Below, in pieces: positions 22,988 to 48,887 of a stretch of 64,000 nucleotides of DNA (the first letter of the stretch is position 1; every line of letters starts with the position of its first letter). The DNA is from Bacteroidota bacterium (GTDB lineage: Bacteria > Bacteroidota > Bacteroidia > Chitinophagales > Chitinophagaceae). Under the pieces are notes generated by a model. That model was not told where the DNA came from. It did no database searches and was given only the letters and a program-made list of their open reading frames with translations. The stretch lies in assembly GCA_030706685.1 (NCBI GenBank), contig JAUZOA010000018.1, forward strand, positions 1,329 through 65,328. The letters are read 5' to 3'. The translations under genes and the position numbers were made by a program.

Positions 22988-23062
22988 ACGCTACCGCGCT
23001 TTTATCTTTTTGTTTACCTATGGGAAAATGGTAAATTGGTCAGTACTAATTACTACCCGGAG

Positions 23063-26000: not shown

Positions 26001-26173
26001 GGATTATCATGGAAGTTTCTGACAACGGGGTCGGGTTTGACATAACATCTTCCCATCTTAATAATGGGTTGAAGAATATGCGAGAAAGAGCCAGGAGCCA
26101 TCAATGGCAGCTTGGCATGAAGTCCGCCCCCGGCGCCGGAGCTACGATAACCCTGAACGCTCAAATAACATAA
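23063..26173 (+). CDS. two-component regulator propeller (Reg_prop/Y_Y_Y) sensor histidine kinase, HisKA_3 type
   Basis: Signal peptide MQRYILVFLLLISLFLTGARAQ (ATG 23063; track start 23036 is TTG). Repeated LWIAT/LWVGT/LWLVT beta-propeller motifs, TM (IWFYALIVLGIGAVFYFMY), H-box NLHDEVGSSLTNI, N-box EAVNNLAKHS and G-box VSDNGVGF. Confidence 0.88.
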   Translation: MQRYILVFLLLISLFLTGARAQDIPHFVEKLTVREGLSSNKINDIAQDDNGFLWIATSDGLNRFDGTEVVQYFHQDNSNSLSHNYVYCLKKLPGNYIAIGTQAGLDFYNSNTGIFKNFYYTQNNRLDEFNNLISELETDTRGNLWAASSNCIFIFDTHLALKKVIPSPCTEADALRKRLRFVEKMLPLADGNMLLYLSTGLKVYSFETNTLTDLKNSSLINRLKFLNDLFNAPSVKKFEEYFPPAGVFKIFERYFLCIKPGADSLLLFNEQGEQLSSSYFPFNKYPYILWSQQLSIIDSTKLLFLFHNYGLASIAVTWEDGKPVIHTPSSLLFESYEYDAALRDRQGNWWLATTEQGLQKISPGKQYFKSDTLIDHLTGRPVKYDIMTIARNKNLLWIGTYGNGFFKVDPVSGKREQYYINTTPASPWPNFIWNIRQINEDTLWVGTQAGLFWYSVSQKKYGHLPAYPGKPSSLDSVPVTTQFVDSHGLVWMGLGKGKGLCYYDMKTRRFTYYPANTPDGYPLRYPTNIAEDRKGDLWLVNDASATLVYHKRNTEGFQSITLPVAAPNRLSNLSGILCEDDTTIWLGTVMNGLIKFNPATRSMTMYGHEKGLSNSHISSIYEDKEKRLWLVTNGDLSCFDKHTETFTNYSEKDGLPARYPTAAFYYDTLFKRLYTGGNGTLFYFDPDGINSNQAPQKTIITAIHVNGKPYMSMADESTASRFRSWQNDITIQYSVVDLTNGPGTKYTYKLIGEDTGWIMAGNQRQINFSRLAPGHYTFMVRASNSAGAWSPEIASIRFYIVPPFTKTIWFYALIVLGIGAVFYFMYRFRLRQLMRTEQIRSEISRNLHDEVGSSLTNISLSSLLAQKQLHNEGAVTRILERIYQDSQNVSEAMREIVWSINPKIDTMGEALPRMLRYASELLEAKDMELHAEIAPEIEQVKLTMQERRDLYLIFKEAVNNLAKHSKATKAVINFHVKDNRIIMEVSDNGVGFDITSSHLNNGLKNMRERARSHQWQLGMKSAPGAGATITLNAQIT

Positions 26174-26221
26174 ATATGCCATTGACAACAAAGTCATTCA
26201 CTGAGTAACTTTATTCAATTT

Positions 26222-26854
26222 ATGCCTGTACGCATCATTATTTTTGAAGATAACCACCGGCTCCGGCAGTCACTGAAAATATTGCTCGATGGTATGGAAA
26301 ATTATACGGTATGCGGGGACTATGAGAATTGCTCACAGGCTGCCATGATCGTTGATGAACACAGGCCGGATGTCATTATCATGGATATTGATATGCCGGG
26401 TGTAAATGGCATTGAGGGTTTGCGCATAATAAAAGAGCGCCGCCCGCAAACATATATCATCATGCATACGGTGCTGGAAGATGAAGAACGTTTATTTCAA
26501 TGTCTTTGTTCCGGTGCGAACGGGTATATACTCAAAAACACTTCTTTTATCAACCTGCTGGAAGCGATTGACAACGTTTTACACGGCGGCGCCCCGCTTT
26601 CACCAACCATTGCAAAAAAAGTTTTACAATCTTTCCAGGCTGCTCCTTCAGCCCGCCTGCAATACAATCTTTCTGAACGCGAAACAGAGGTGCTGAAATA
26701 CCTGGTAAAAGGTTATAGTTATAAAATGATCGCGTCTGCCTGCACTATCAGCGTGGATACCGTAAGAGGGCATATCAGGAATATTTATACAAAGCTGCAT
26801 GTAAACTGCGGACGGGAAGCGGTAGCGAAAGCGCTGCATGATAAAATCGTTTGA
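26222..26854 (+). CDS. response regulator, NarL/LuxR family (REC + LuxR HTH)
   Basis: REC domain (VRIIIFEDN ... IIMDIDMPGVNG) and LuxR HTH (LSERETEVLKYLVKGYSYKMIASACTISVDTVRGHIRNIYTKLHV). Confidence 0.92.
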   Translation: MPVRIIIFEDNHRLRQSLKILLDGMENYTVCGDYENCSQAAMIVDEHRPDVIIMDIDMPGVNGIEGLRIIKERRPQTYIIMHTVLEDEERLFQCLCSGANGYILKNTSFINLLEAIDNVLHGGAPLSPTIAKKVLQSFQAAPSARLQYNLSERETEVLKYLVKGYSYKMIASACTISVDTVRGHIRNIYTKLHVNCGREAVAKALHDKIV

Positions 26855-26864
26855 AGCATATACA

Positions 26865-26945
26865 ATGTCAGATGTACGATGTACGCCAACCTGAATGTTG
26901 AAATGTCTCCGGCATTCGGACTGGCGTACATCGTACATCTGACAT
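26865..26945. repeat. long perfect hairpin (24-bp stem, 33-nt loop) just downstream of the LuxR regulator gene
   Basis: 26865-26888 (ATGTCAGATGTACGATGTACGCCA) is the exact reverse complement of 26922-26945 (TGGCGTACATCGTACATCTGACAT). No T-tract follows. Confidence 0.85.
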
Positions 26946-27048
26946 CGTACATCACTTGTCTCTCCAAAATAGCATAAACATGCAATTGACAACCGCGGTG
27001 AGTCCGGTTAATTTTACTTAAATTGCTATTATTATCAAAATTCTATTT

Positions 27049-27753
27049 ATGGACAAAACTAATTCCAACAGTCATTCCGGTCGTCGTAAATTCTTAGGAA
27101 CCCTGACAACCGGCGCCGCCGCCATGGGTCTTGCGGGACTCGTTACTCCACTTCAGCAACTTCACGCCACTCCCGCTCCAACCATCACCGGTAATATCGA
27201 CCCTGATGAATGGTTTAAACAAATAAAAGGAAAACACCGTATTGTTTTTGATGTTACCAAACCGAATGGAATAATGCCTTTTGCATGGCCAAGAGTATTT
27301 CTTTTAACCAATGCCGCTACCGGTACACCTGAAAAAGAGTCAAGCGTCGTTGTCATTTTACGTCATGAGGGGATTCCCTTCGCTTTTGAAGACCGTATAT
27401 GGTCCAAATATAATTTTGGCGAGGTATTTAAAGTAGATGATGATGCTACCAAAAAACCCGCTGTACGAAATGCGTTCTGGAAACCGGCCAAAGGAACCTA
27501 TAAAGCTCCTGGAATAGGGGAGATAGCTATTGGCATAAATGAATTGCAGGAAAGCGGTGTTATGTTCTGCGTTTGTAATGCAGCCATGACAGTTTACAGT
27601 GCTGTGGTAGCTGATATGATGAAAATGAAAGCGGAAGATGTAATGGCTGATTGGAAATCCGGTTTATTGCCGGGAATTCAAATTGTTCCTTCAGGAGTCT
27701 GGGCAGTAGGCAGGGCCCAGGAACATGATTGCAGGTATTGTTATGCCGGCTAA
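27049..27753 (+). CDS. Tat-signal periplasmic protein, DsrE/DsrF-like fold (putative)
   Basis: Twin-arginine motif SGRRKFLGTLTTGAAAMGLAG. The body (HRIVFDVTK ... VVVILRHEGI ... MFCVCNAAM ... IQIVPSGVWAV) resembles DsrE-like proteins by eye. The assignment is from memory. Confidence 0.55.
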   Translation: MDKTNSNSHSGRRKFLGTLTTGAAAMGLAGLVTPLQQLHATPAPTITGNIDPDEWFKQIKGKHRIVFDVTKPNGIMPFAWPRVFLLTNAATGTPEKESSVVVILRHEGIPFAFEDRIWSKYNFGEVFKVDDDATKKPAVRNAFWKPAKGTYKAPGIGEIAIGINELQESGVMFCVCNAAMTVYSAVVADMMKMKAEDVMADWKSGLLPGIQIVPSGVWAVGRAQEHDCRYCYAG

Positions 27754-27772
27754 TGGCAGTAAAGACCCACCG

Positions 27773-28780
27773 ATGTGTTTTGAAAAGTCAAAATGGCTGC
27801 TGCTAATAGCCATAGCAGCGGCCATTGTAATTGTTACGGCGCTGATTGCAGAAAGAAAGAAGAAAGATTCTTTCGCAGTCAACACCAATACAATGAGTAA
27901 AGGCTTTGAATGGAAGGCTCCCGATACCAATCAAATTGCTGTTGCCGAAAACGGGCAGCTTATCCGTTATGGAAGAGAGCTTATCGCCCATACATCTTTT
28001 TATCTCGGTCCAAAAGGAAGTATAGCAGCTACTACCAATGGAATGAATTGCCAGAATTGCCACCTGGAAGCGGGTACTAAGCCCTGGGGAAATAATTACA
28101 GTGCTGTATTTGCTACTTACCCGAGATTCCGTGAACGAAGCGGAACGATAGAGAATATTTATAAAAGAGTGAATGATTGTATCGAAAGAAGTTTGAATGG
28201 AAAAGCCATAGATACAAACAGCCGGGAAATGCAGGCGATATCTTCTTATATTCAATGGTTAGGCAGCGGAGTGCCCAGGGGGACAACACCCGCGGCGGCA
28301 GGGATCAAAACAATTCCTTTTCTAAAAAGAGCTGCTGATCCCACCAGGGGGAAGATGGTGTATTGGCAGAATTGCCAGCGTTGTCATGGACCGGAAGGAA
28401 AAGGGCTTTTGAATACCGACTCGACTATGTATATATATCCTCCATTGTGGGGCGACAATAGTTACAATACCGGCGCCGGTCTATATCGTATCAGTCGTTT
28501 AGCCGGGTATGTAAAAGAAAATATGCCATTTGATGCCCCGCAAAAATCCAGGCACCTGACGGATGAAGAGGCATGGGATGTGGCCGCATTTATTAATTCG
28601 CAACCCCGTCCCGGCAAAGAGTATAAGAATGACTGGCCGGATATTGCCAGGAAGCCATTTGATCATCCTTTTGGGCCCTATATAGATAGTTTTTCAGAAC
28701 AACAACACAAATATGGCCCGTATGAACCGGTCAGGCAGTTGCAGGAGAAAATGTACAGTAAGCAGCTAAACCCTTATTGA
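27773..28780 (+). CDS. dihaem c-type cytochrome, TsdA-like (thiosulfate dehydrogenase family, putative)
   Basis: Two CxxCH motifs (MNCQNCHLEAG; QNCQRCHGPEG) and a conserved-looking Cys 39 residues after the first haem His (RVNDCIERSLNG), consistent with His/Cys ligation in TsdA. It also has a PPLWG..SYNTGAG segment and an N-terminal TM anchor. I prefer the ATG at 27773 to the track start 27725, which overlaps the upstream gene. Confidence 0.6.
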   Translation: MCFEKSKWLLLIAIAAAIVIVTALIAERKKKDSFAVNTNTMSKGFEWKAPDTNQIAVAENGQLIRYGRELIAHTSFYLGPKGSIAATTNGMNCQNCHLEAGTKPWGNNYSAVFATYPRFRERSGTIENIYKRVNDCIERSLNGKAIDTNSREMQAISSYIQWLGSGVPRGTTPAAAGIKTIPFLKRAADPTRGKMVYWQNCQRCHGPEGKGLLNTDSTMYIYPPLWGDNSYNTGAGLYRISRLAGYVKENMPFDAPQKSRHLTDEEAWDVAAFINSQPRPGKEYKNDWPDIARKPFDHPFGPYIDSFSEQQHKYGPYEPVRQLQEKMYSKQLNPY

Positions 28781-28804
28781 TATTTCATTTTAAAAAACTT
28801 TAGT

Positions 28805-29221
28805 ATGAAAAAGCATATATCGCTAACAGCTATTCTCATGCTGGTTACGTTTTTAGTGCAGGCACAGGCTCCTAATTATAAAGTTGTTTTTGATATGACC
28901 AGCCGCGATTCCGTGAACCAACAGTCTCTTATCCGGGAACTGGGACTGATCCGCGAATCAAATCCCACGGCAAAACTGGAAGTGGTGCTATACGGGCAGG
29001 GTTTGGACCTGGTAATAAAAGGCAGATCGTCACAGGAGCCTAATGTTGCCCGTTTATTAACTGATAAGGATATATCCTTTAAAGTATGCGCGATAGCCAT
29101 GAAACGGACAAACATTGTTAAAGACCAGTTGATCCCGGGAGTAGATATTGTACCCGATGGTATCTATGAAATAATATCAAAACAACAGGAAGGATGGGGT
29201 TATATAAAAGTGGCACATTAA
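28805..29221 (+). CDS. DsrE/DsrF-like family protein with Sec signal peptide
   Basis: 138 aa. Signal peptide MKKHISLTAILMLVTFLVQAQA. The body is YKVVFDMTSRD ... LEVVLYGQGLDLV ... FKVCAIAMKRT ... VDIVPDGIYEI. Confidence 0.6.
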   Translation: MKKHISLTAILMLVTFLVQAQAPNYKVVFDMTSRDSVNQQSLIRELGLIRESNPTAKLEVVLYGQGLDLVIKGRSSQEPNVARLLTDKDISFKVCAIAMKRTNIVKDQLIPGVDIVPDGIYEIISKQQEGWGYIKVAH

Positions 29222-29244
29222 ATAGAGGATAAGACCGAAAGCCG

Positions 29245-29294
29245 GAAAGTCCGGAAGACATTTACTCAACCCGAAGATTATCTTCCGGACTTTC
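29245..29294. repeat. hairpin, 14-bp perfect stem (GAAAGTCCGGAAGA / TCTTCCGGACTTTC)
   Basis: 29245-29258 is the exact reverse complement of 29281-29294, with a 22-nt loop. It lies 24 nt after the stop at 29221. No T-tract follows. Confidence 0.8.
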
Positions 29295-29343
29295 GATCTT
29301 CCCTTCTGCATTACTTTCTCGCTTTAGTGTTATTTTTATCAGT

Positions 29344-30408
29344 ATGAAACAATTCTTAATTGCCTTTTGCATACTGACATCTCTTGCTCCCCTTCATTCA
29401 CAAAAATTATCGGAAGCTGATGCGACGAAGCTGGCAAGATTGCCCCTGCGTTGCATTACAAGTGAATTTCCCAATAAGACATCACATACAGCCGATAGCG
29501 CCAGCGACGCTGTATTATTACCCAGCCAGCTTCACCCTTCGTTTTATGGTTGTCTCGACTGGCACAGCAGTGTACACGGCCATTGGCTATTGCTAAAAGT
29601 GCTGAAAGAATTTCCCTCCATCACTATCCGCGACAGCATTATACAAGTACTCAGTAATAGCTTTCAATCACAAAAAATAAATGAAGAGGCCAGCTATTTT
29701 TCAAAATACAAGACCACCAACACCTATGAACGCACTTATGGCTGGGCATGGCTGCTGAAGCTGGACGAAGAATTGTATACCTGGGATGATCCCCTTGCGA
29801 AGCAATGGCATGCCACCCTTCAACCTCTCACAAAAAAAATTGTTGCCTTGTGGAAAGCTTTTTTACCCAAACAAACCTACCCTAACCGGACAGGCGTACA
29901 TCCCAATACTGCTTTCGGTTTGGTCTTTGCGATCGACTGGGCAAGAACAGTGAAGGATACTGCTTTTGAAAATGAAATTATCAAAACAGCGAAAACATTT
30001 TATTTAAACAATACCGCTACTCCCGCCTACCTGGAGCCCGATGGCACTGATTTTTTAAGCCCCAGTCTTGAGATCGCCGACCTGATGCGACGGGTTTTGG
30101 CAAAGCAATCATTCATCGGCTGGCTGAATAAATTTTACGAAACACGAAGCATTCAACGTATTACTCAAATGCCTGTCATCAGCGATCGCACGGATTACCA
30201 GATCGTGCATTTAGACGGTCTCGCATTAAGCCGTGCCTGGTGCATGAAAGGTATCGCGAAAGAATTACCCGCTTCTCATCCCTGGAAAAAGTTGTTGGAG
30301 AAAACAGCCGCTGATTTTTTACAAAAAGCATTACCCAATGTAACCAGCGGTAATTATGGCGGAGACCATTGGCTGGCCAGTTTTGCCATTTATGCCTTAA
30401 GCCTTTAG
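29344..30408 (+). CDS. DUF2891-like protein with signal peptide (function unknown)
   Basis: 354-aa ORF. The motif FYGCLDWHSSVHGHWLLL matches what I recall as the DUF2891 hallmark (memory only). Confidence 0.65.
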   Translation: MKQFLIAFCILTSLAPLHSQKLSEADATKLARLPLRCITSEFPNKTSHTADSASDAVLLPSQLHPSFYGCLDWHSSVHGHWLLLKVLKEFPSITIRDSIIQVLSNSFQSQKINEEASYFSKYKTTNTYERTYGWAWLLKLDEELYTWDDPLAKQWHATLQPLTKKIVALWKAFLPKQTYPNRTGVHPNTAFGLVFAIDWARTVKDTAFENEIIKTAKTFYLNNTATPAYLEPDGTDFLSPSLEIADLMRRVLAKQSFIGWLNKFYETRSIQRITQMPVISDRTDYQIVHLDGLALSRAWCMKGIAKELPASHPWKKLLEKTAADFLQKALPNVTSGNYGGDHWLASFAIYALSL

Positions 30409-30815: not shown

Positions 30816-33377
30816 TTGAAACCAATCCTGCTACTATTGCTATCCCCTTCTTTTGTATCGGCGCAGGTGATAAGATCTGTAGAGCCTGTGGAAACAAAAG
30901 ATTATATCAACATGATCCGCCGGCATGGCGACACTGCAAATAATAACAACGTATCGCCGGCGGACTCGATCAATAGTGTACGCAATGCCAACCTCACCCT
31001 GCGCGGCATTTTCAATCCTGCTATCGCTATCAAGAGAATAAATATCAATAACGGGAATATCAAAATCTACAGTAATTATTCAAGACGCCTGGTGCTCAGC
31101 GGCAGTTATAGTTCTGTCGCCAGTATCAAAACAACTAACCGGCTTCCCGGCTTACAAAATAATTTTGTACAAGGTGGCCCTGCAAATGGAGAATTGCGCT
31201 GGCTTGGCCCTGAAACAGGAGAAATGTTCAGCTTTGGGCCTGACATTCATGCCCTGGAATTTGATGGCAGTTCGTACCCCTATGATCAGAATGGTAAATT
31301 AGTGGCAACAGGTTCCGGCAACGGGAACCCGGCTCAAATTTATCATAGCAATATTTTCAGAACAGCGGCATCGCTCTCCCAGTCATTGAATATCCAAAGC
31401 ACGCTTTACCGCGCGGCTAAAAATACCTGGACCTTTAATGTTAAACTGGGACAAACAGGTGAACATATATACATCAGGGATAATAAAAACTCCTCCAAAA
31501 CTATTTCGGCTTCCATCGGAACAGTGTCCAAATCGCTTAGCCTTTCAGGAAACTATAGCTATTCCCGTGACAAATTCTCCAACTCTAACCGGAATGGGTT
31601 TTTAAACCGCGTATACCAGAACTCGTTGCTCACCCCGATCAGTTTTTCCGCTACCCAGGGGAATACACTTACCGGCAATATTCAAAGAAGCTATAGCCAC
31701 CTCGCGGACAACCCCTTCTTTCTATTGGATAATAACGGTAACTCCTTTTTACAGTCACAGCATCATGGAAACGTGGTATTGGAAGAAAAAACAAATAGCC
31801 TGAAATTCAAAGTAATTCAGTCTCTTGAAAGCGTACAACAAAAAAGTATTGAGCAATACAAAGAAGGAACAGCTTATTTTCCCGGCGGGATCGCCACGGG
31901 AAGAAAGAAAAATGATCTTTCTTATTTATTAACAGCCAGCGCCTGGGGAGACATTAACTATTCAAATTACAGGTATCACTCTACTTTATCTGTTAATTAT
32001 ATTTTTACGGGTACCCGGTCAGCTATCTGTTATTCCATTAATAGTCAAACCTATAGTTACCAAAGGTCTTCCAATGATGTAAACTTCAGTTATCTCACGC
32101 TTTACAGGGGACATAATATAGAAGCAGGGATTGATCTTACTAATAAATTTTATTATTCCAATACATCCGGTAAAGGCAGTTACTTCTTGCCTGCCGTCAA
32201 TTCATATGCCCGGTTGAATAATATCTTCGACTACTTTGATATCAAGCTGAATACAGCTGTCAATCATTTCAAAAGTGAATTACCGGTTGACAAGTCCTTT
32301 GCGCATATCAATTTATTGCGATACTCTACGCAGGATGCGTTTCAATATTTCCCGCTCGGGGAAGTGACGGGTTTTGATAATCTTAAAGTGATTGATCATT
32401 TTGAATGGACGGGGAAATTAGAATTGTGGTATAAGAACAATATTTCTCTCAGCGGGGAAGTGTTTATAAGAAATACCCGCCATGATGTCTTTCCTGTTTA
32501 TAAAAACGGAGACTGGGTACTTAAAAATATAGCTGATCACCGTAAAAAGGGTATTGAATTGCAGCTAAGCTCTTACCGGCTTCCTTTTTCTCCGAAGAAA
32601 TTCTCTGTCAGTAATACGCTCTCATTTACCTCCTATCAAAACAGGGTAACAAAAGTGGGAGACGGTTACAATTTCACTCCCATTGCAGGGTTCAGCAATA
32701 TTAATAAAGTTATAGCGGCGGGCGAGCCACTGGGAGCCATAGCAGGAAGCAGTTATGTCCGGGATGCATCAAATAATATCCTCATCGGGAATGATGGGTA
32801 CCCGCTTGTCAATAATCAACCAAAAATAATCGGCGATCCTACTCCTGATTTTATCATGAAGCTGAGTAATAGCATGAACTGGAAAAAATTCACGTTGTGC
32901 CTGGATATGGAATGGAAAAAAGGGGGAGATGTCTGGAATGGTACACAGGCGGCATTGGATTATTACGGAAGATCACAGACCTCGGCGATGCTGCGGAATA
33001 CGACGAATTATATTTTCCCGGGCTATTTACAGGATGGTCATATCAATAATATCCCGGTCAATTTTTATGACCCGGCTTTACCGCTTGATAAAAATCGCTG
33101 GGTGAGATACGGTCTTAGCGGTATCGCGGAAGAATATATTCAAAAGGGGGATAACATCAGGCTAAACACCTTATCCCTCGGATACAAATTGAATTTCAGG
33201 AAATATATACAGCAACTGACGGTTGGGATATACCTGGATAATATTATCCTTTGGACAGCTTATAAGGGCGCAGACCCGAACCAACTACTATATGACCAAC
33301 CGAATGGTTCGGGGCTCGACTTTTTCAATCTTCCTTCCACTAAAACATTTGGCTTTACCACCTCCATTCAATTTTGA
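30816..33377 (+). CDS. SusC/RagA-like outer-membrane beta-barrel lacking a recognisable CarboxypepD_reg + plug N-terminal module
   Basis: 853 aa with a TTG start and signal peptide MKPILLLLLSPSFVSAQ. The body and C-terminus (TKTFGFTTSIQF) parallel the barrel part of the SusC at 43937-47185. I find none of the plug signatures in the first ~100 residues. Confidence 0.75.
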   Translation: MKPILLLLLSPSFVSAQVIRSVEPVETKDYINMIRRHGDTANNNNVSPADSINSVRNANLTLRGIFNPAIAIKRININNGNIKIYSNYSRRLVLSGSYSSVASIKTTNRLPGLQNNFVQGGPANGELRWLGPETGEMFSFGPDIHALEFDGSSYPYDQNGKLVATGSGNGNPAQIYHSNIFRTAASLSQSLNIQSTLYRAAKNTWTFNVKLGQTGEHIYIRDNKNSSKTISASIGTVSKSLSLSGNYSYSRDKFSNSNRNGFLNRVYQNSLLTPISFSATQGNTLTGNIQRSYSHLADNPFFLLDNNGNSFLQSQHHGNVVLEEKTNSLKFKVIQSLESVQQKSIEQYKEGTAYFPGGIATGRKKNDLSYLLTASAWGDINYSNYRYHSTLSVNYIFTGTRSAICYSINSQTYSYQRSSNDVNFSYLTLYRGHNIEAGIDLTNKFYYSNTSGKGSYFLPAVNSYARLNNIFDYFDIKLNTAVNHFKSELPVDKSFAHINLLRYSTQDAFQYFPLGEVTGFDNLKVIDHFEWTGKLELWYKNNISLSGEVFIRNTRHDVFPVYKNGDWVLKNIADHRKKGIELQLSSYRLPFSPKKFSVSNTLSFTSYQNRVTKVGDGYNFTPIAGFSNINKVIAAGEPLGAIAGSSYVRDASNNILIGNDGYPLVNNQPKIIGDPTPDFIMKLSNSMNWKKFTLCLDMEWKKGGDVWNGTQAALDYYGRSQTSAMLRNTTNYIFPGYLQDGHINNIPVNFYDPALPLDKNRWVRYGLSGIAEEYIQKGDNIRLNTLSLGYKLNFRKYIQQLTVGIYLDNIILWTAYKGADPNQLLYDQPNGSGLDFFNLPSTKTFGFTTSIQF

Positions 33378-33381
33378 AATC

Positions 33382-36300
33382 ATGAAACTACCAGTAAAAC
33401 ATTTTGTATTCTTATTGCTGATAGCAGGATCAGTCAATAGAGTTTTTGCGCAAGTGCCGGACTATTCTTCGTCAAAGGAAAAGGTCTATATTCAAACCAA
33501 TCATGTATTCTTTAAGCCCGGCGACCAGGTCTTTTTCAAACTTTACCTCGTAAATGGGCAGGACCAAACGCCTTCCGGACAGAGCAGCGTGGTGTATGTA
33601 GAAGTCATCAACCCTTCGGGCAATGTGCTTCAAAAACTGAATTACCGGGTTGACAACGGGTATACGGAGGGTTCATTTGATTTTAATGAAGAAGCCCCCG
33701 GCGGGATTTACAAACTCCGGGCCTATACTACCTGGATGCAAAACGAAAAAGACAGCAGCTTCTTTGTAAAAGAAATTACTTTACAAAAAGTCATCGCGCC
33801 AAGAGTGCTGATGAAACTCGACTTCCCGAAAAAAGGCTATGGTGCCGGCGACGAAGTGACAGCTGATTATTCTATACGTAATCTCAGCGACCAGCCTATC
33901 CGGTATTATGAAGTAAAATATACCGTTTCCGTTGGCGGAACCACTATCCATACCAATAGCTTTAAAACGAACAATGAAGGTAAGGCGCAGGTGAAATTCA
34001 GGCTTCCCGCCGACCTGAAGAGCAGTGATGGATTGCTGAACATCACGATAGAATATGATTCTTATACAGAAGCCATTTCAAGAAGCATCCCGATTGTTCT
34101 TAATAAAATCGATCTCCAGTTCATGCCCGAAGGAGGAACCCTCGTTAACGGCATTGCCACCAACATTGCATTCAAAGCACTGAATGAAAACGGGAAACCG
34201 GCCGATATAAAAGGAGAAATATGGGATAATGAGGATAACAAGATCATGTCTTTTGAAAGTTATCATTTTGGAATGGGGAAATTTTCCTTCACGCCGCAAA
34301 AAGGGAAAACATATATTGCAAAAATCACTTCCCCTGCTTCTATCCAGGAAAAATTCAAATTGCCGGTAGCGTCGAATAATGGCATTGTGATGAATATGTC
34401 GGAGAACGACAACAAATTATTGGTCAAATTAAGCTCGACCGAAGACAGGTATATAGAATTAGCCGGGCAAACTAAAAACGTTATTTACCATTCTCAAAGG
34501 TTGTTCCTGAAAAAAGGGGAGCAGGTCACTGAAATAGATGAAAGAAAATTTCCTGCAGGCATCGCGCAGTTTACTATTTACAATGAAGATGAGTTGCCCA
34601 TAGCAGAAAGACTGGTATTCTTAAATGAGAATAAAGTATTACAGGTAAAGATCACTACCGATAAAGACAGGTATTTGCCAAGAGAGAAGGTCACGATGAC
34701 GCTTCAAACACTGGATGAAAAAGGCGACCCTGTTCCTTCAAATTTTTCTGTAGCAGTAGTAGATGACAAACTTTGGTCTTTCGCGGATGATAAACAGGAT
34801 CATATTCTTTCCTGGCTGCTGATGAGCTCTGAATTGAGAGGAAAAATTGAAGAACCACAATTCTATTTTAAAAAAGATGAGCCTAAAGCAGTGCCCGCGC
34901 TGGACCTTGTTATGCTGACTCACGGTTACCGGTATTTTGATTATATCGAATATGTTCAAAAAGAGGGGAAATTGAAATTTACACCGGACCAGCCAAATAT
35001 TTTAAGCGGTGTAGTTCTTAATGACAAACAACAACCCGTGAAAGCAAGCGTATTCCTGGTAAATCCCAATACCGGCGAAAAAGCATTGAATATAAAAACC
35101 GGTTCGGATGGCATATTTTTCTTCTCCGACCTGGCACCAAGGACGAACTACTATTTGATCGCTCAGTCCCTGAAGGAAAAAGAAAAAGTGACCATTAAAG
35201 TTTTGCAAAACGGCATAGGGTATAACCCTTTAAAAGCAAAACAACTTGCTCCACTTGCTTCAAAATTTGGCGCCCGTACAGGCTTAGGCCTGGTCAATCC
35301 CGTTAAAAAAGAAGAAGCGGAAAAAGTAAATCTAAAAATAATAGTTGATAAAAAAGAGGAAGGGCGGATGAATGAAACTCACCTGGATGAAGTAGTCATA
35401 GTTGGCTATGGCGCAGCAAAAAGAAAGGATTTAACCGCTGCGGTAGCCGTTGTAAGAAATGAGGCGTTGCCGGCAGCCAATAATCTTGGTTTTCTGCTGG
35501 AGGGCAAAGTCGCTGGCCTTGATATAGAGCAACAGGCTAATCCTGCGGCAGGAGCCGTATTTAAAATCAGGGGAGCGGCTGCATTAGCCGGCGGTAATGA
35601 GCCATTGTATGTTGTGAATGGAATACCTGTCGAAAAATTCGAATGGAATTTCAACCCGAATGATATTGAATCCATCACTATTTTGAAAGATGCGTCCGCC
35701 ACGGCGATCTATGGGGCAAGAGCTGTCAACGGCGTGATTGCCATTGAGTCGAAAAAATTCAGGAATCAAAAGATCAGGCTGGACCTGACAAAAAAATATT
35801 ACTATATCACGCAAATGATCCAGGCAGGCGGTTCTGTATACTCGGTAGCAAAAAGATTTTATGCACCAAGGTACCATTCAACGGAAACATCCGAAAGAAA
35901 TGATTTCAGGGAAACCATTTACTGGAACCCGGTAGTGCAAACCGATAAGAATGGAAAAGCATCTGTTGAATTCTATAATTCCGATGCCTCTACTACTTTC
36001 AGGGCTATCGCGGAAGGAATTGCGTATAATGGAAAAATCGGGAGAGCCGAAGCCACTTATACCACAAGGAATGCGATAACTGTCGATGCGAAGATCCCTC
36101 CTTATCTTACCGTAGGAGACAAAGCATTGATCCCATTGGTGATTAAGAATAATACTGAACAAAACGCAGATGCAACGATCAGTTTACATCTTCCCGGGAA
36201 TATTAAAACCGGTGATTATGATAACAAAATCATCTTAACGGCAGGCGAATCCAGGCAAGTGCTGATCCCGGCAGAAGCAACCGCCGCGGCTAAGGGATCC

Positions 36301-37908
36301 ATCCAGTTCATGGTAAAAAGTCAATTCAATACAGAAACGATTTCTCTGCCTGTTGTTGCCAGTGATAAGGGCTTCCCGGTAATCGAAACCTTTTCAGGAA
36401 ATAAGTCCGCCAGGCATAATTTCACCATTAATAAAATGATACCCGGAACCCTGCAATCGCATCTTAAGGTATTTCAAAATTTAGAAGGCCAGCTATTGGA
36501 TGGAATTGAATCGATGTTAAGAGAACCGGGCGGATGCTTCGAACAAACATCCTCTACTACTTATCCGAATATATATGTATTAAAATATTTACGTGAAGCC
36601 GGAAAATCCAATCCTGCTATTGAGAAAAAGGCTTTATCCTATATCGAAAACGGTTACAACAGATTGATCGGTTTCGAAACGGCTCAAAATGGTTTTGAAT
36701 GGTTTGGGCATACGCCGGCGCATGAGGCTTTGACCGCTTATGGATTGCTCGAGTTCACCGATATGCAGGAATTCATTGATGTAGATAAAAAAATGATGGA
36801 AAGAACAAAGACGTTCCTGATGAGCCGGAGAGACGGCAAAGGTTCGTTTTCCCTGGCATCTGGCGGATATGACAGGTTTGCTTCTGTCCCCGACAAGATC
36901 GCAAACATTTATATAGTATATGCTTTAACGCAAGCGGGAATCGGTAACGAGATACAGCAAGAGTACCGGGCAGCAGTAAATAAAGCCATCGACAGCAATG
37001 ACGCTTACCAGTTAGCTATGATGGCGCTGGCAGCCAGTAATATGAAAAATGAAAATGATTACGCCCGGTTGATGGAACTGCTGAATACTAACTATCAAAC
37101 GTTGAAATTGTCGGCGGAAACCAGTGTCGTCAATTCAAGAGACGCTTCACTGCGGGTGGAATCCATGTCGCTGTATACGTTGGCGCTGGCAAGAGAAAAG
37201 TCCCCGAGGATCGGCTTGATGGCAGAACTTGTTTCTAAAATACTGGGAGAAAAATCTTATTACGGGTATGGTTCAACACAGGCGACTGTGCTCGCGTTAC
37301 ATGCCATTGTTGAGTACTCCAAACTAATTGGAACTTTAGCACCGGATTCGCAGGTAGCTTTTACCCTGAATGACCAGGCAATCACTCCCGGTACCAGCCC
37401 CCTGATCAATCTCAGGAACGGGGAGAATTCATTTGATATTCATTACGAAAATGCGAACAAAACCATTCCTTACAATCTTGAAGTTTCTTACAATACGCTA
37501 ACGCCACCTAACAGCGCGAAGGCGGAACTGAAATTATCTACCCGGCTGAAAGATATTCAGACGAAAGTGGGAGAAACGGTAAGAATGGAAATTGAAGTGA
37601 AGAATGAAAGATCTGCACTTCAGCCTATGGCGATTGCAAAGATTGGAGTACCCGCTGGTTTGGCTGTACAGCCCTGGCAGTTGAAAGAAATAATGGAAAA
37701 GAATGAAGTGGCTTATTACGAAATTTTTGATAATTACCTTGTATTGTATTGGATGGGATTTGCTCCAAATGAGATCAAAAAGGTCAACCTGGATCTGAAA
37801 GCGGAAATAGCCGGCACTTATAAAGGAAAAGCCAGCAATACCTGTTTATATTATACACCTGAATACAAAAACTGGAATGATGGTGTGGAAATAGAAGTAA
37901 AACCATAG
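33382..37908 (+). CDS. alpha-2-macroglobulin-like thioester protein with an internal SusC-type CarboxypepD_reg + TonB-receptor plug module
   Basis: The ATG at 33382 gives signal peptide [24 protein letters not shown] (track start 33223 overlaps the previous gene). It has MG2-like N-terminal repeats and a CarboxypepD_reg-like segment (nt ~35002-35215). A plug-like segment lies at nt ~35383-35760 ([12 protein letters not shown] ... [35 protein letters not shown]). The thioester region [21 protein letters not shown] places Cys codon 1052 at nt 36535-36537. The C-terminus is A2M receptor-domain-like. Confidence 0.8.
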   Translation: [1508 protein letters not shown]

Positions 37909-37955: not shown

Positions 37956-39407
37956 TCAAGGCTTGCCGGGTGTAAATGAAAATGCCAAAGCCGGATAAAA
38001 AGAACCAGTCTTTAACAACGATTGAGGAAGGGATACTTTAACAACGCCATTATCATTTACCCATTTTACCGTTTCCCCATTCTGCAACAACGTCATCTTC
38101 GTTCCCTTCGCCGGGATATTGTTTTTCCATTCTATCGCAGATGGCAGCGCTTCATTATCATCCAGGCATACAAGCGCATACATTAACGTTCCCGTTTTAT
38201 TTTTAGTAAAAAATGTTTTGCCATCCTGGTATTGAGGAGTAGTGCGTGTATTATAAATGGCTTCGCCGTTTATTTTCATCCATTTTCCAATTTCTTCCAA
38301 TCGCTGAATAGCTTCTGCCTCCAGGGTTCCATCTGCCCGCGGGCCTACACCCAGCAACAGGCTCCCACCCTTTGCCACAATTTCTATTAAAGAATGAATC
38401 ACTTTTGTTGCAGACTTGAAATGTTCGTTTGGAACCCATCCCCAGGCATTGCCCAATGTCATACAGCTTTCCCATGGATGATCGAGTTGACGATCCGGGA
38501 TTCTTTGCTCGGGTGTCTGGTAGTCTTCATAAAGCCCATGCACCGTGCGATCAACGATCAGCAATCCGGGTTGCGCTTTTCGCGCCATCGTGGCGATAGC
38601 GGGTATATCAATATCCTGGCTCCAGGCGGGAATAGCAGCGCCCCATGATCGCACTTCTTCGTTGACCGTTTTCAAAGGCCTTACCCATCCCCCGTCCAGC
38701 CACAAAATATCAACCGAACCATAATTATGCATCAGTTCACCAATTTGGTTATAGGTATATTTTTTATACTGGCTCCATCGCCAGGAATATTTGCGGATAT
38801 CATAGTTGTTATTACGATCTGCGGTGGCATATTTGGGCCACCAGTAATATTCAGAATGCCAGTCGGGTTTGGAAAAATAAGCGCCGATCATAAAATCATT
38901 TTTCCGGAAAGCATCGAATACATATTTCGCTACATCGGCCCTTGGATTATTTTTAAAAGGCCCGGCTGATATTTTAAAACCCGTTTCTTTCGTATCAAAC
39001 ATACAGAACCCGTCATGGTGTTTGGTGGTAAATACAACATACCGCATACCGGCATCCTTTGCTGCATTGGCCCATTGTTCAGGATTAAAATTGACGGGGT
39101 TAAAATCTTTGGCAAGACCCCAGTACCATTTTTTATAATCATCATAAGCGATAGTACTGTCCCGTTCTATCCAATCCTCAGAACAAATAGACCACGATTC
39201 AACGATTCCCGGTACGGCATAGATGCCCCAGTGTATGATCATACCGAACTTGAGATCCTGCCATTTATCTAATTTTGCTTTTACCAATGGGTCTGTGGGC
39301 CATTCATATCCTGAGGATGAAGGTGTATTTTGTTGCGCTTTAAGGCAAACAGCAGCAAGTGTTAAAAAAGAAAATAAGAAAGCTTTGTAGGCTAATTTCA
39401 AAATCAT
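37956..39407 (-). CDS. alpha-L-fucosidase (GH29)
   Basis: 483 aa with a signal peptide and the GH29-type motif YVVFTTKHHDGFCMFDTK. The overall length is typical. Confidence 0.85.
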   Translation of the reverse strand: MILKLAYKAFLFSFLTLAAVCLKAQQNTPSSSGYEWPTDPLVKAKLDKWQDLKFGMIIHWGIYAVPGIVESWSICSEDWIERDSTIAYDDYKKWYWGLAKDFNPVNFNPEQWANAAKDAGMRYVVFTTKHHDGFCMFDTKETGFKISAGPFKNNPRADVAKYVFDAFRKNDFMIGAYFSKPDWHSEYYWWPKYATADRNNNYDIRKYSWRWSQYKKYTYNQIGELMHNYGSVDILWLDGGWVRPLKTVNEEVRSWGAAIPAWSQDIDIPAIATMARKAQPGLLIVDRTVHGLYEDYQTPEQRIPDRQLDHPWESCMTLGNAWGWVPNEHFKSATKVIHSLIEIVAKGGSLLLGVGPRADGTLEAEAIQRLEEIGKWMKINGEAIYNTRTTPQYQDGKTFFTKNKTGTLMYALVCLDDNEALPSAIEWKNNIPAKGTKMTLLQNGETVKWVNDNGVVKVSLPQSLLKTGSFYPALAFSFTPGKP

Positions 39408-39481
39408 ACTACTAAGAATTTTTGTTTCGGCTAACTTCTTTGTTATTTGCCAACCTTATACAACCAGCCTATTAACTGTGA

Positions 39482-41938
39482 TTAATCGTTTTGAATAAAA
39501 TCATTCCCCGATAATTGCCAGTCATTATCATAAAAGCCCGTCATCTTTACTTCATTGGCTCCTGATTGAAGCATATTTAATTTATAGATCATAAAGTCCG
39601 GGAAGCCGCTTGCTCCCGCAAAATATTGATTGGCTGTAGCTGCATTCATCCCTTTTATACCCGTTCCGCTGATCACGCCCACGGAAGCTATGGAAGAATT
39701 GCGAAGCGGCCATACAAAATAGGCCGCGAAATCATCTCCTTCCCAGGTTTTGCCGCCAGCGGTAATTTTATTACGCTCTACCTGTATCGGGCAATCATTT
39801 AGTACCGTTTTCCAGGCCGCATTCGTATTGCTATTGCCATAAACGATCACACCCCTGTCCTTATATTTTTCCAAGGAAAACTCTTTATCGGGGATGATAT
39901 CCACCGCCCCGTTGCCACGATAATACCATGTTTCAGCATCATACCTGGCTTTATTAAAACTCCATTCATTTTCTTCCTTTGTGCCGGTAGTGCCATATAC
40001 AAAAATCATATCGTGATTAAAAGCATCCTTAAACGTTCCATAACGATCAGGACCTTTCGCATAAGCACCCGGTACCGAAGTTACTTCCCATTTATTATTA
40101 TTCCGGGTAAGAAATAAGCTATCCGTTGAACTGGTTACTTTATATTCTACCGGCGCCGATCCATCAAGAGTAATTTTTACCAGGTCGCCGGCATTAAAAT
40201 CCCTGAGATCTAATTTCAATATGCGGGCGTTTTCTGTATTTCCGCTGATTGTTTTGGCTGCCTTATTTCTTTTTAGTTGTACCCGGCTGAATTGCAGCGG
40301 ATGTAGCTGTTGCCGGATAGCTGCCCAGCGAAAGGAAGAGGATATGCCCGGGTTAGCTGTTATGAAATCAATTGTATTCACGGCGCTGTCAACTGCCAGG
40401 CTATGCCATTTAAAGAAATCGAAGATGGGTTTCCAGTCAACGCTCTGGTCACCGAACCAATGTTCTCCATTCGGGTATTCATAATAACTGAGATCGCTGT
40501 GAAAATCGCCCAGCAATTTCCGCATTTGCCTTGCATAATTGACAGAAACAACTTTGTCGGCTTCCCCATGAAGAATATAAACACCGATAGGCTTATAATT
40601 AGATACCAGTTTGATAACATCGCTCTGGTTACCCGAGCGAAGCAATAATTGTTCTAACGGCGAGCTGCTGCTGTCGGGGATCAAGCCATCGGCGGAGCCA
40701 TAGCCTTTTAATGTAGGATAACCGGAACAGGCAGCGATCGCCGCCCACTTGTCAGGGTAAGTAGCGCCAAGAAACCATGTTCCATGGCCACCCATCGAAT
40801 GACCGGTCAGGTAAATATGTTGCGGATCGGGTTTGAATTTTTCTTTCGCGATAGCCAGCACTTCAAGAGCATCCAATCTTCCCCAGTCTTCCCAGTTAAA
40901 GCCCCGGGGCCGGCGGTTAGTCGCTGCCACCAATGTACCCCAGTCTTTTGAATGATAAGCCCTGGCTTGTCCTATTGCTTCCACGCCGGCCCCATGTACA
41001 GATAAAAACAAAGCCGCGCCTGTATTGAACGAAGGCGCTTGTGGTGTTACCGCATAATATTGAAGACTGCTGTCAATAGTGCTGATAAAAGTGTTGCTGT
41101 ATTTATCCGTCGGGTCTACCGCGTCTATCGCTATCTTTTTTTCATCTACGATTGTCGTTTTATCCAGTAGTGTTATCGTGCACTCATATTGTCCTTTTTT
41201 TGTGGCAGCCGTCCCGTCAAAATGGAAAATTATCTTGCGGGAAGACATAGCAGGCACGGAAGGAATATCAGTAGTCATTTCTTTGCCGCCGATATTGCTT
41301 TTGATATGCCATCCTTTTATCGTTTTTCCGGACGAGTTGATCAATACCACAGCGCCCATCAGGTCATTATTGGGATGGCCGGGCACTATAAACGGCAATG
41401 TCGGATCTCCTGTATCCAGGAATACGGGTTTATCGGGAAAAATAAGATCGGCGATAATGTTTTGCCCCCTTACATAGATTTCGTTCACCCCTTTCTTCAA
41501 CTTTACAGGAATAGATAACCACCCGGATGCATAAGCATCACCTGCATGTGGCTCCCCATTAAAAATAATGGCGCTGTTACCTTTTATATTGAGCAGGGCA
41601 GGCTGTTCTTTATTGGAAGAATAAGTAAGATAAATATATCCGCCCCCATCGCGGAATCCACCTCTGCCTCTCAGGCGGTTCAGGCTATCGCCGGTCACCG
41701 ATTGCCATTTAATGAGCTGCCCGTTGCGGCTTACGCCAAAGGAGTCGCCTTCGGCAGGCCGTTTCATCGTATTTGTATATAGTTTGTAAGCCAGTTGATC
41801 CGTATACAGGGCTTCGCGCCCATACCGGCTTACAGAATTGATCATCAATCCTTGCGTAAAATGATAAACGTTTTGTGAAAAAGAAAAAACATGGATCAAA
41901 AGTGAAAAGATCAAAAGCCCGGAATTTCGCTTTCTCAT
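39482..41938 (-). CDS. multidomain secreted alpha/beta hydrolase (esterase / S9-like serine hydrolase core flanked by beta-rich domains)
   Basis: I prefer the ATG at complement 41936-41938 (MRKRNSGLLIFSLLIHVFSFSQ). It has the nucleophile elbow IYLTGHSMGGHGTW, followed by ILHGEADKVV and PNGEHWF (candidate Asp/His). It sits inside a PUL. Confidence 0.7.
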   Translation of the reverse strand: MRKRNSGLLIFSLLIHVFSFSQNVYHFTQGLMINSVSRYGREALYTDQLAYKLYTNTMKRPAEGDSFGVSRNGQLIKWQSVTGDSLNRLRGRGGFRDGGGYIYLTYSSNKEQPALLNIKGNSAIIFNGEPHAGDAYASGWLSIPVKLKKGVNEIYVRGQNIIADLIFPDKPVFLDTGDPTLPFIVPGHPNNDLMGAVVLINSSGKTIKGWHIKSNIGGKEMTTDIPSVPAMSSRKIIFHFDGTAATKKGQYECTITLLDKTTIVDEKKIAIDAVDPTDKYSNTFISTIDSSLQYYAVTPQAPSFNTGAALFLSVHGAGVEAIGQARAYHSKDWGTLVAATNRRPRGFNWEDWGRLDALEVLAIAKEKFKPDPQHIYLTGHSMGGHGTWFLGATYPDKWAAIAACSGYPTLKGYGSADGLIPDSSSSPLEQLLLRSGNQSDVIKLVSNYKPIGVYILHGEADKVVSVNYARQMRKLLGDFHSDLSYYEYPNGEHWFGDQSVDWKPIFDFFKWHSLAVDSAVNTIDFITANPGISSSFRWAAIRQQLHPLQFSRVQLKRNKAAKTISGNTENARILKLDLRDFNAGDLVKITLDGSAPVEYKVTSSTDSLFLTRNNNKWEVTSVPGAYAKGPDRYGTFKDAFNHDMIFVYGTTGTKEENEWSFNKARYDAETWYYRGNGAVDIIPDKEFSLEKYKDRGVIVYGNSNTNAAWKTVLNDCPIQVERNKITAGGKTWEGDDFAAYFVWPLRNSSIASVGVISGTGIKGMNAATANQYFAGASGFPDFMIYKLNMLQSGANEVKMTGFYDNDWQLSGNDFIQND

Positions 41939-42001
41939 ATGGATATAATTATAGTTAGAATAACGCGAATTATTTTTTTCGAAAGCTACTGCCAATTAGC
42001 C

Positions 42002-42042
42002 CAAAAAAGACAAATCAGACCGCTAAATAAGCGGCCTGATTT
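42002..42042 (-). terminator. rho-independent terminator-like hairpin after the SusD-like gene
   Basis: On the minus strand, AATCAGGCCGC-loop-GCGGTCTGATT (one mismatch) is followed by TGTCTTTTTT. It lies 36 nt downstream of the stop at 42078. Confidence 0.6.
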
Positions 42043-42077
42043 TGTTTTGTTGGTTGGTCTTGCTATCTGCGAACAAA

Positions 42078-43919
42078 TCATTGGTAATTATAATCATTCC
42101 AATAAGGTAATACATTTCTTTTATCAGCCGGCACCCAGAATATGGGCGTCGTGAAATTGTCCTGTTGCTGTACCTGCAGGTAATTGTCCGGGTTGGTTTG
42201 CTGGGCGGATAAGGGATAACGCAAACGTTCGGGGAAAGGCTTCATTACTTTGGCCGTAAAAGTCATGGGTTCCAGGTAAGGATGCCTGGTTCTTCTCAGT
42301 TCGGCCCACAATTCAAATGGCGCGATAATATTCAGGTGTATATATTTTTGTTGCATCAGTATCTCCATCTTGTCCTCGATATTCGCCCTTGTATTAAAGC
42401 GGGTCACGATTGAATCGGCATACAGGCCTACAATCCCTGCATTAGGTTTGGCCGGGTGCATATACAGGGCTGAATCTTCTCCGAACCTGTTGCTGCTGAA
42501 AGTTACCGGGCCTGTAAAATAATTACCGGCGATAGCTTTTGCCACGAAAGATGAGGCCATCCGGCTTTCTTCGTTTCTTGCATACCAGAAATCCGTGGAA
42601 TGAATGATCGCGTCTTTAATATGCTGACCGGCCGTTTTGCCGGTATTGCCAAGCGCTTTTAGCTCCACTTCAGCCAGGAGCAGATCCACTTCGGCCAAAG
42701 ACATCATGTAAGCAGGGAACTTGGAATCATGCGTATAAGTAGTAAGGTGATACTGTGATTTGGAGTTTTGCTGCAGCGATAAGATAAAACTATTGGGAGT
42801 AGTCGTATACCTGTCACCCGCAACATACCCGGGCTTTTGAGCATCGGCATTATACGTAACCCCGATGTATTTACGCAGGTTGGTAGTAGCGCTGTAAGCG
42901 CCATCGAAAAACTTCGTAGGCATGGCTATTACCGGCAACCTGGGATCATCTATGCCGGGCTGGTAGTGGGCCGAATCCCGGTTCATCCGTCTCATTATTA
43001 TATCCGGGATAAAACTTGCGAATGAATTCTCACCAAGACCTCTTATCCAGAAACCATTACTTTCAGGAGCTTCCTCGGCAAAGACAGGTTGCAAAAGATC
43101 CTGGGCAGGAAAGGGCTTGGTAAGCACATCCTGTAATTCTCCTTTGGCCAGCGTTTCATCAACCCCTGAAATTCTTACAGCATATTTTAGCCGCAATGCA
43201 TTGATGAATTGAAGCCATTTATCGACGTTGCCTACAAAGGCGATATCATATTTTGCAAAAAGTTGTTTGCCCAGGTCTGTCATGGCATTGTATACCGTGG
43301 GCAGGTCCTGGCTTATTTGTTTCAAATCACTCATCACGGAAACATATATCGACTTGGGGTCATCGAATTTCGGATAGAATATTTTATCACTTCCTTTAAA
43401 AGCTTCGGAATAAGGAATGCTGTTATAAAAATCCACGTTGACCAATGCCATATAATCTTTAATGACTGTCGCCAGCGTATAAAAAATCTTATTATTAGTA
43501 AGTGCCTCTCCGCTGATTTTACTGAGTTCATCATTCAATACAGCCCAGTATCTTGATCTTGTATAAAAGTCATTCAATCTCCCATTCCACAGGGTATTGG
43601 TATTACCCCCAAAAGCATTTACCCCGCTCAGGTCATCGAAATTATAAAACCAGGGATAGCGGTCAGTAATATAACGCTGGGCGAGCTGCGCATAACCCGG
43701 AACTTCTGTACCCGCATTCAGCTGCCAGTAGAATTCCCCGTAATCCTGGATAAATACTTTATGTTCGGTGAGCATGGAAAGAAAAATGCCGCCAAAGAGG
43801 TTTTCCGTTTTTGAATACACTTCGGGATTCCTGAATTGATCTTCCAGTTGCTTTTTGCAACTGACCAATGAGCTTAGCATAAAAAGAACAAACAGGTATT
43901 TTATTATATGCCGTTTCAT
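42078..43919 (-). CDS. SusD/RagB family nutrient-binding outer-membrane lipoprotein
   Basis: 613 aa with lipobox LSSLVSC. It lies immediately downstream (17 nt) of a SusC-type gene. Composition is SusD-like (aromatic-rich, ends WNDYNYQ). Confidence 0.85.
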   Translation of the reverse strand: MKRHIIKYLFVLFMLSSLVSCKKQLEDQFRNPEVYSKTENLFGGIFLSMLTEHKVFIQDYGEFYWQLNAGTEVPGYAQLAQRYITDRYPWFYNFDDLSGVNAFGGNTNTLWNGRLNDFYTRSRYWAVLNDELSKISGEALTNNKIFYTLATVIKDYMALVNVDFYNSIPYSEAFKGSDKIFYPKFDDPKSIYVSVMSDLKQISQDLPTVYNAMTDLGKQLFAKYDIAFVGNVDKWLQFINALRLKYAVRISGVDETLAKGELQDVLTKPFPAQDLLQPVFAEEAPESNGFWIRGLGENSFASFIPDIIMRRMNRDSAHYQPGIDDPRLPVIAMPTKFFDGAYSATTNLRKYIGVTYNADAQKPGYVAGDRYTTTPNSFILSLQQNSKSQYHLTTYTHDSKFPAYMMSLAEVDLLLAEVELKALGNTGKTAGQHIKDAIIHSTDFWYARNEESRMASSFVAKAIAGNYFTGPVTFSSNRFGEDSALYMHPAKPNAGIVGLYADSIVTRFNTRANIEDKMEILMQQKYIHLNIIAPFELWAELRRTRHPYLEPMTFTAKVMKPFPERLRYPLSAQQTNPDNYLQVQQQDNFTTPIFWVPADKRNVLPYWNDYNYQ

Positions 43920-43936
43920 AGCAAAGATTTTTAAAA

Positions 43937-47185: not shown

Positions 47186-47444
47186 TTCGTTGAGTTTTAG
47201 GTTTAAGAATTTTGTTTGAGATAGCAATACCTGGTACAACCACATGCCGGCATGGTGCCCGGCATGGACAGTTGCATTAATCTTTCTGATGTGAACGGTG
47301 GCTTGAAACCTGATGTTAGATACACGCATGGCCCGGCCTGTACAGCCGCAACTCATGCTTACTTTAGCCTGCCTGTTACTTTGCCTGTCTACGCAGTAGT
47401 TTTAATATATACGGGACGTATATTGTAGCCTCCCTTAACCATTA

Positions 47445-48674: not shown

Positions 48675-48887
48675 ACTATGGATTTCCCAGATATTAAAAT
48701 AAATCGCTATGAAGATAGAAGACTTTTTAAAAAAAAACAAAAAGTTTTTTATTTTTTATAATTAGTCTGGTTACATACACCCTAACCTCCATGCTTTTTC
48801 CAGGAAATGGCGCCGCCTGATTTTTATTGGCTGGTAGTGGTCAAGTTTGAGGACAATGGGCGATGTTTGGAAAAGACGGGGTTTAAT

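Follow-up and report, generated by a model that had tools for sequence, protein, structure and literature searches.

Outer-membrane transporters of the SusC/RagA type, such as BT2264 (SusC) and BT1763 of B. thetaiotaomicron and RagA of P. gingivalis, belong to the TonB-dependent transporters (TBDTs), which are classically built from a single chain carrying its plug in cis. Bacterial α2-macroglobulins (A2Ms), e.g. ECAM (YfhM) of E. coli and SaA2M of Salmonella, are periplasmic proteins acting as protease traps or inhibitors (PMC4498604); ECAM is a membrane-anchored lipoprotein and is often paired with PBP1C. Here we analysed two adjacent genes, P0001 and P0002, in which elements of both families meet. 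They lie in a stretch of 64,000 nucleotides (nt) from a Bacteroidota bacterium of the Chitinophagaceae (assembly GCA_030706685.1, contig JAUZOA010000018.1, positions 1,329 to 65,328 of the forward strand), hereafter called the window. P0001 is predicted to be a SusC-family barrel devoid of a plug and P0002 an A2M that carries a TonB box and a SusC-type plug. We consider it probable that both proteins form one two-chain TonB-dependent outer-membrane transporter, the plug being supplied in trans by the A2M. The features discussed are listed below with their window coordinates and strand.

30816..33377, + strand: P0001, predicted SusC-family outer-membrane β-barrel without plug, 853 amino acids (aa), TTG start (profile searches, AlphaFold2, Foldseek)
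~30816-30863, + strand: predicted signal peptide of P0001, cleavage after MKPILLLLLSPSFVSA and before Q
~31083-33377, + strand: predicted barrel part of P0001, beginning at about residue 90
33378..33381, + strand: gap between P0001 and P0002, 4 nt (TGA-AATC-ATG)
33382..37908, + strand: P0002, predicted bacterial alpha-2-macroglobulin with TonB box and SusC/RagA plug, 1508 aa (Pfam, NCBIfam)
33382-33450, + strand: predicted type-I signal peptide of P0002
33481..33756, + strand: macroglobulin (MG) domain of the MG2 type, P0002 34-125 (Pfam)
35002..35181, + strand: CarboxypepD_reg-like β-sandwich, P0002 541-600 (Pfam, below cutoff), also present in plug-less A2M relatives
35179..35376, + strand: variable linker rich in K/R, P0002 ~600-665, gappy in the homolog alignment
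35389..35412, + strand: TonB box EVVIVGYG, P0002 670-677, motif LNEVVVxGYG invariant across homologs
35422..35736, + strand: SusC/RagA-type plug, P0002 681-785 (Pfam Plug)
35662-35754, + strand: SusC_RagA signature, P0002 761-791 (NCBIfam TIGR04057)
35914..36183, + strand: A2M family core PF00207, P0002 845-934 (Pfam)
36496..37317, + strand: thioester domain (TED), P0002 1039-1312 (Pfam, E 2e-27)
36532-36546, + strand: thioester motif GCFEQ, P0002 1051-1055, invariant in homologs
43937-47356, - strand: P0003, the bona fide SusC of the window (CarbopepD_reg_2, Plug and full TIGR04056)

The original prediction, made by reading the sequence, had noticed that P0001 begins without a CarboxypepD_reg domain or plug, and profile searches bear this out. 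P0001 has no Pfam match even at E ≤ 10, and the NCBIfam SusC/RagA profile TIGR04056 covers residues 539-853 only, i.e. profile positions 670-981, which correspond to the end of the barrel (the C-terminal 315 residues). Neither CarboxypepD_reg nor plug was found in the N-terminal ~90 residues, which are disordered and of low confidence in the AlphaFold2 model. This model, built from a 10-row alignment (9 homologs), contains about 22 long β-strands, with a mean predicted local distance difference test (pLDDT) of 65 and a predicted template modelling score (pTM) of 0.61. Its top Foldseek matches in PDB are the SusC barrels BT2264 (5fq7/5fq6) and BT1763 as well as RagA, with E values down to 1.7e-35 and a query TM-score (TMq) of 0.62; the predicted 22-strand fold is the one described for SusC/RagA transporters. 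The parallel that had been drawn between the body of P0001 and the barrel of P0003 holds for the F-rich β-signal at the C-terminus, which corresponds in both proteins; the other motif matches proved loose, and BLAST identity (25%) is limited to the C-terminal 293 aa. No plug was detected in any of 529 P0001-family homologs (lengths 793-946 aa). Profiles and model together lead us to classify P0001 as a plugless SusC-family outer-membrane barrel.

Some barrels of the P0001 family (~910-946 aa; P0166, P0192, P0235 and the genes of loci L008 and L010) do possess an N-terminal CarboxypepD_reg or CarbopepD_reg_2 domain, still without plug. A fused form, i.e. barrel plus plug or barrel plus A2M, was not found among the homologs, the search for longer proteins being weak evidence in this respect. 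The four TBDTs of ~1630 aa that this search did yield (P0243-P0246), fused to VWA and VIT (inter-alpha-trypsin-inhibitor-like) domains and equipped with their own plug, belong to a distinct family and are distant from P0001, whose barrel they resemble at 28-30%.

The start of P0002 follows the stop of P0001 after exactly 4 nt, as had been noted, and the two genes are tightly coupled. P0002 proved to be a secreted protein of the announced length, with a signal peptide and an MG2 domain near its N-terminus. Its phmmer matches in PDB are A2M, CD109 and complement proteins, and its GCFEQ aligns with GCGEQ of human A2M (7voo), in agreement with the original comparison of the thioester region. MG domains, A2M core and TED with a CxEQ motif (GCFEQ here, CLEQ in ECAM) are features shared with ECAM and SaA2M (PMC4498604), so that P0002, with its intact motif, is placed by its domain content in the bacterial α2-macroglobulin family. 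A receptor-domain-like C-terminus, as originally proposed, was not recovered: A2M_recep was not detected in P0002 even at E ≤ 10, and full-length homologs show weak matches to A2M_recep (E ~1e-4) or bMG10. No lipobox was found in P0002, in its homologs or in plug-less A2M relatives; P0002 differs in this from the lipoprotein ECAM, and also in its partner, which is a plugless TBDT barrel.

The plug predicted at P0002 ~670-793 was confirmed by profile and sequence comparison. Pfam Plug matches residues 681-785 with an E value of 1.1e-14 (55 bits for a cutoff of 24), TIGR04057 scores above its cutoff (55.5 vs 46.2), and residues 663-797 are colinear with the TonB box and plug of P0003 (residues 155-276; BLAST, 33% identity, E 6e-20). 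As in SusC/RagA transporters, the TonB box lies N-terminal to the plug, which bears the SusC_RagA signature. When 10 homologs are aligned, neither the TonB box nor the plug signature nor the thioester residues vary. Taken together, the features of P0001 and P0002 described so far are well beyond what chance would give.

What P0002 has acquired relative to other A2Ms appears to be smaller than first thought. The CarboxypepD_reg-like domain and the plug had been taken for one SusC-derived module; the former is the A2M's own β-sandwich, kept at the same place in plug-less A2M relatives. A joint import from SusC was consequently rejected: residues 541-600 do not align by BLAST with the N-terminal extension (NTE) of P0003 and recur in relatives devoid of plug. 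In the plug-less relative L052, a second β-sandwich domain occupies the slot of P0002 606-822 (~215 residues comprising K/R-rich linker, TonB box and plug). The alignment therefore indicates that the swapped-in module consists of linker, TonB box and plug, and not of a SusC NTE plus plug; it is also where P0002 departs from ECAM, its TonB box and SusC plug taking the position of a β-sandwich domain. The plug had further been located roughly where a bait region sits in classical A2Ms. The bait region of ECAM lies within MG8 (PMC4498604). In P0002, a weak A2M_BRD match (residues 416-462, E 0.01, below cutoff) is found ~250 residues upstream of the plug, and the plug is accordingly not obviously at the bait region.

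Plug and barrel also differ in their distance to the SusC proteins of the genome that harbours them. Compared with the plugs of these SusCs, that of the A2M shows 40-47% identity, whereas the P0001 barrel shows only 20-32% identity to their barrels, a divergence that sets it apart from SusC/RagA transporters and suggests an old, diverged barrel subfamily. A single SusC donor for both parts was tried as an explanation and rejected, as plug and barrel similarities show no positive correlation across the 18 SusCs of this genome (Spearman -0.41, p 0.09).

We then assessed the distribution of the pair. P0002 has at least 2441 homologs at E ≤ 1e-3 and, among the matches listed, the whole architecture is common to hundreds of homologs at 60-81% identity. 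P0002-like proteins occur in Chitinophagaceae (Ferruginibacter, Niastella, Chitinophaga, Flavisolibacter) and in metagenome-assembled genomes (MAGs), where databases label them 'TonB-dependent receptor plug domain-containing protein'. A survey of genome contigs yielded 13 plug-A2M loci, 11 of which include upstream DNA; in each of these 11, 16-46 nt separate the A2M gene from the end of a P0001-like barrel gene lying upstream. A further search in 401 Bacteroidota genomes added four more distant ones (35-43% identity, three other families of the class), each with a full-length plug-A2M and a barrel directly upstream. The window shows the same arrangement and, overall, each plug-A2M gene whose upstream DNA could be inspected is accompanied by a plugless barrel (15/15). 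By contrast, no barrel adjoins the genes of two A2M relatives (0/2) that are full-length but possess β-sandwich domains where the plug would be, nor is one present within 4.4 kb upstream of them. Isolate annotations likewise give the pair consecutive locus tags (Niastella vici A3860_26920/26915; N. koreensis A4D02_30685/30690). The pairing extends widely through Chitinophagaceae and into related Bacteroidota. Unlike in SusC/RagA systems, P0001 and P0002 have no accompanying SusD-like gene, nor does one recur beside the pair in the loci compared. The A2M-plug genes of two MAG loci (L003 and L011) are frameshifted, probably through assembly errors. The genome of the window (5.74 Mb, 100% complete) contains the barrel as a single copy and, elsewhere, a second TED_complement open reading frame (ORF) of 1822 aa (G000:C1:86003-86350), which probably encodes a classical bacterial α2-macroglobulin with no tie to the barrel pair.

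The fit between both proteins was addressed by complex prediction, with P0001 17-853 and P0002 650-800 as input, a 10-row alignment for each and three runs. The A2M plug was placed inside the lumen of P0001 in all three, with an interaction prediction score from aligned errors (ipSAE) of 0.83 vs 0.01 for the best control. The pLDDT of the partner is ~61 and the runs share at least 76% of contacts. Confident contacts involve residues 684-800 of P0002 and alternating lumen-facing strand residues of P0001, including 188-196, 311-321, 334-340, 367-371, 394-398 and 419-425. This predicted pattern, which matches a plug seated in the lumen with the plug-in-barrel geometry of SusC/RagA transporters, supports a fit between the two chains and stops short of demonstrating binding. 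The docking of the plug in the barrel, as foreseen from the sequence, is thus reproduced as a prediction only.

In the two-chain transporter that we propose, P0001 would supply the 22-strand SusC-family barrel and P0002 the TonB box and plug, corking the barrel from the periplasmic side. Because a TonB box functions only when it faces the periplasm, P0002 would be periplasmic, its A2M body (MG domains, TED with intact thioester, C-terminal domains) hanging beneath the channel and tethered to the outer membrane by the plug–barrel contact. The pull of TonB on the TonB box would rearrange the plug and thereby open the channel; gating would in this way be physically coupled to the position of a thioester protease-trap protein. 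The most likely role of such an assembly would be either that of a channel-linked trap, catching proteases that reach the periplasm through or near the pore, or that of a channel gated by protease attack on the A2M. The state of the channel could also be linked to capture by the thioester. Of the original suggestion that the protein is anchored, displayed or gated at the outer membrane, anchoring and gating from the periplasm are consistent with this topology; surface display is not, and was rejected as main model since the TonB box needs the periplasmic side. A stronger version, which we hold to be unlikely, would have the A2M itself serve as the cork at work in an import channel gated by TonB. 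Cleaved by a protease, or having covalently captured an incoming protein through its thioester, the A2M would be remodelled, and the channel would thereby be opened, closed or emptied.

Described systems offer partial precedents for this arrangement. In the TonB-dependent transducers FecA, FpvA and FoxA, the plug-bearing chain has extra periplasmic domains linking transport to another function (PMC11658791). Their extra domain is fused in cis to the barrel-bearing chain and addresses an anti-sigma factor, whereas in P0002 a whole A2M of 1400 residues is concerned and the barrel is separate. Braun and colleagues (~2003) reportedly reconstituted FhuA in trans by combining a cork and a barrel that had been produced separately. 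A barrel deprived of its cork, FhuAΔ5-160, can be produced and is inserted into the outer membrane (PMC9581862). Unlike these laboratory constructs, P0001 and P0002 represent a natural and conserved split, with the cork on an unrelated large protein; unlike in SusC/RagA transporters, barrel and plug/TonB box are separate polypeptides and the plug forms an internal part of an A2M of 1508 aa.

Several points weigh against the two-chain transporter. The high ipSAE may stem from resemblance to SusC/RagA plug–barrel structures already solved and not from this pair itself, and the halves of a split gene can pass in the same way. When the plug region of P0002 was modelled alone (residues 480-900, 10 homologs, AlphaFold2), confidence was low (pLDDT 49), and Foldseek returned a weak, sequence-driven SusC plug match that is uninformative on fold. 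The idea that the barrel replaces the lipid anchor of other A2Ms finds no support in the contrast with plug-less relatives, because these also lack a lipobox. The two proteins might act separately, P0001 as a permanently open pore and P0002 as a soluble periplasmic A2M that traps entering proteases, with its plug domain folded and not inserted. Any two genes linked in function could be expected to be co-transcribed and to co-occur, and a FhuA barrel stripped of its plug is viable as an open channel (PMC9581862). Such a division of labour leaves unexplained, however, why the TonB box and plug signature of the A2M are invariant and why the plug tracks the barrel, plug-less A2M relatives being without barrel; complex prediction moreover puts the plug in the lumen. 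We judge it unlikely.

In a further explanation, the barrel would export or display the A2M, and the segment with plug and TonB box would be a targeting or threading element with which P0002 crosses the outer membrane to the surface or the outside. The position of this segment in the middle of P0002 would suit this, and the TBDT Oar of Myxococcus is reported to be required for secretion of the protease PopC across the outer membrane (PMC6434023). Besides the periplasmic orientation required of the TonB box, a folded A2M of ~170 kDa cannot pass a TBDT barrel without unfolding and P0002 revealed no surface-anchoring features, which makes export quite improbable. Alternatively, TonB box and plug could energise or trigger a conformational change of the A2M directly, with an unrelated barrel next to it. 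Conservation of the TonB box would follow, but the plug domain would be superfluous, and a plugless barrel accompanies the A2M throughout (15/15), which speaks for complementation of that barrel; we regard direct action on the A2M as very improbable. An artefact of assembly or annotation, e.g. a split SusC gene plus its neighbour, has next to no likelihood and is already refuted by the conservation of the two-gene architecture, which is met again in hundreds of independent genomes and MAGs (35-80% identity), both ORFs being intact and provided with signal peptides.

The original prediction had offered no characterised example, and a literature search for A2M with TonB, plug or SusC likewise found no published description of an A2M-borne plug complementing a plugless barrel. 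Should the two-chain transporter exist, a natural and conserved split with the cork on a 170-kDa thioester protease trap would offer a novel means of building and regulating an outer-membrane channel and would surprise specialists of both TBDTs and α2M. It would link TonB-gated transport with the α2M/complement type of trap, raise the issue of how TonB force is transmitted through a large periplasmic protein, and give a periplasmic A2M an outer-membrane anchor without lipid. If the stronger version held, the A2M would be a protease-sensing or protein-capturing gate, and an active outer-membrane transporter would have an immune-like trap of the α2M superfamily built directly into it. In summary of the earlier reading, its sequence observation is confirmed and its interpretation partly supported.

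Finally, we surveyed the neighbourhood of the pair. No neighbour besides P0001 and P0002 is conserved in the other genomes compared. Upstream (23036-30408, + strand) are genes for a Reg_prop/Y_Y_Y sensor histidine kinase, a LuxR-type response regulator, a SoxA/TsdA-like diheme cytochrome c, and DsrE-like and DUF2891 proteins; the sensor, cytochrome c, DsrE and DUF2891 genes were considered as members of the unit and excluded because they are not conserved with the pair. Downstream (37956-48740, - strand) extends a polysaccharide-utilisation-like locus comprising a GH29 α-L-fucosidase, an esterase/S9-like hydrolase, a SusD-like lipoprotein, the SusC P0003 and a ROK protein.

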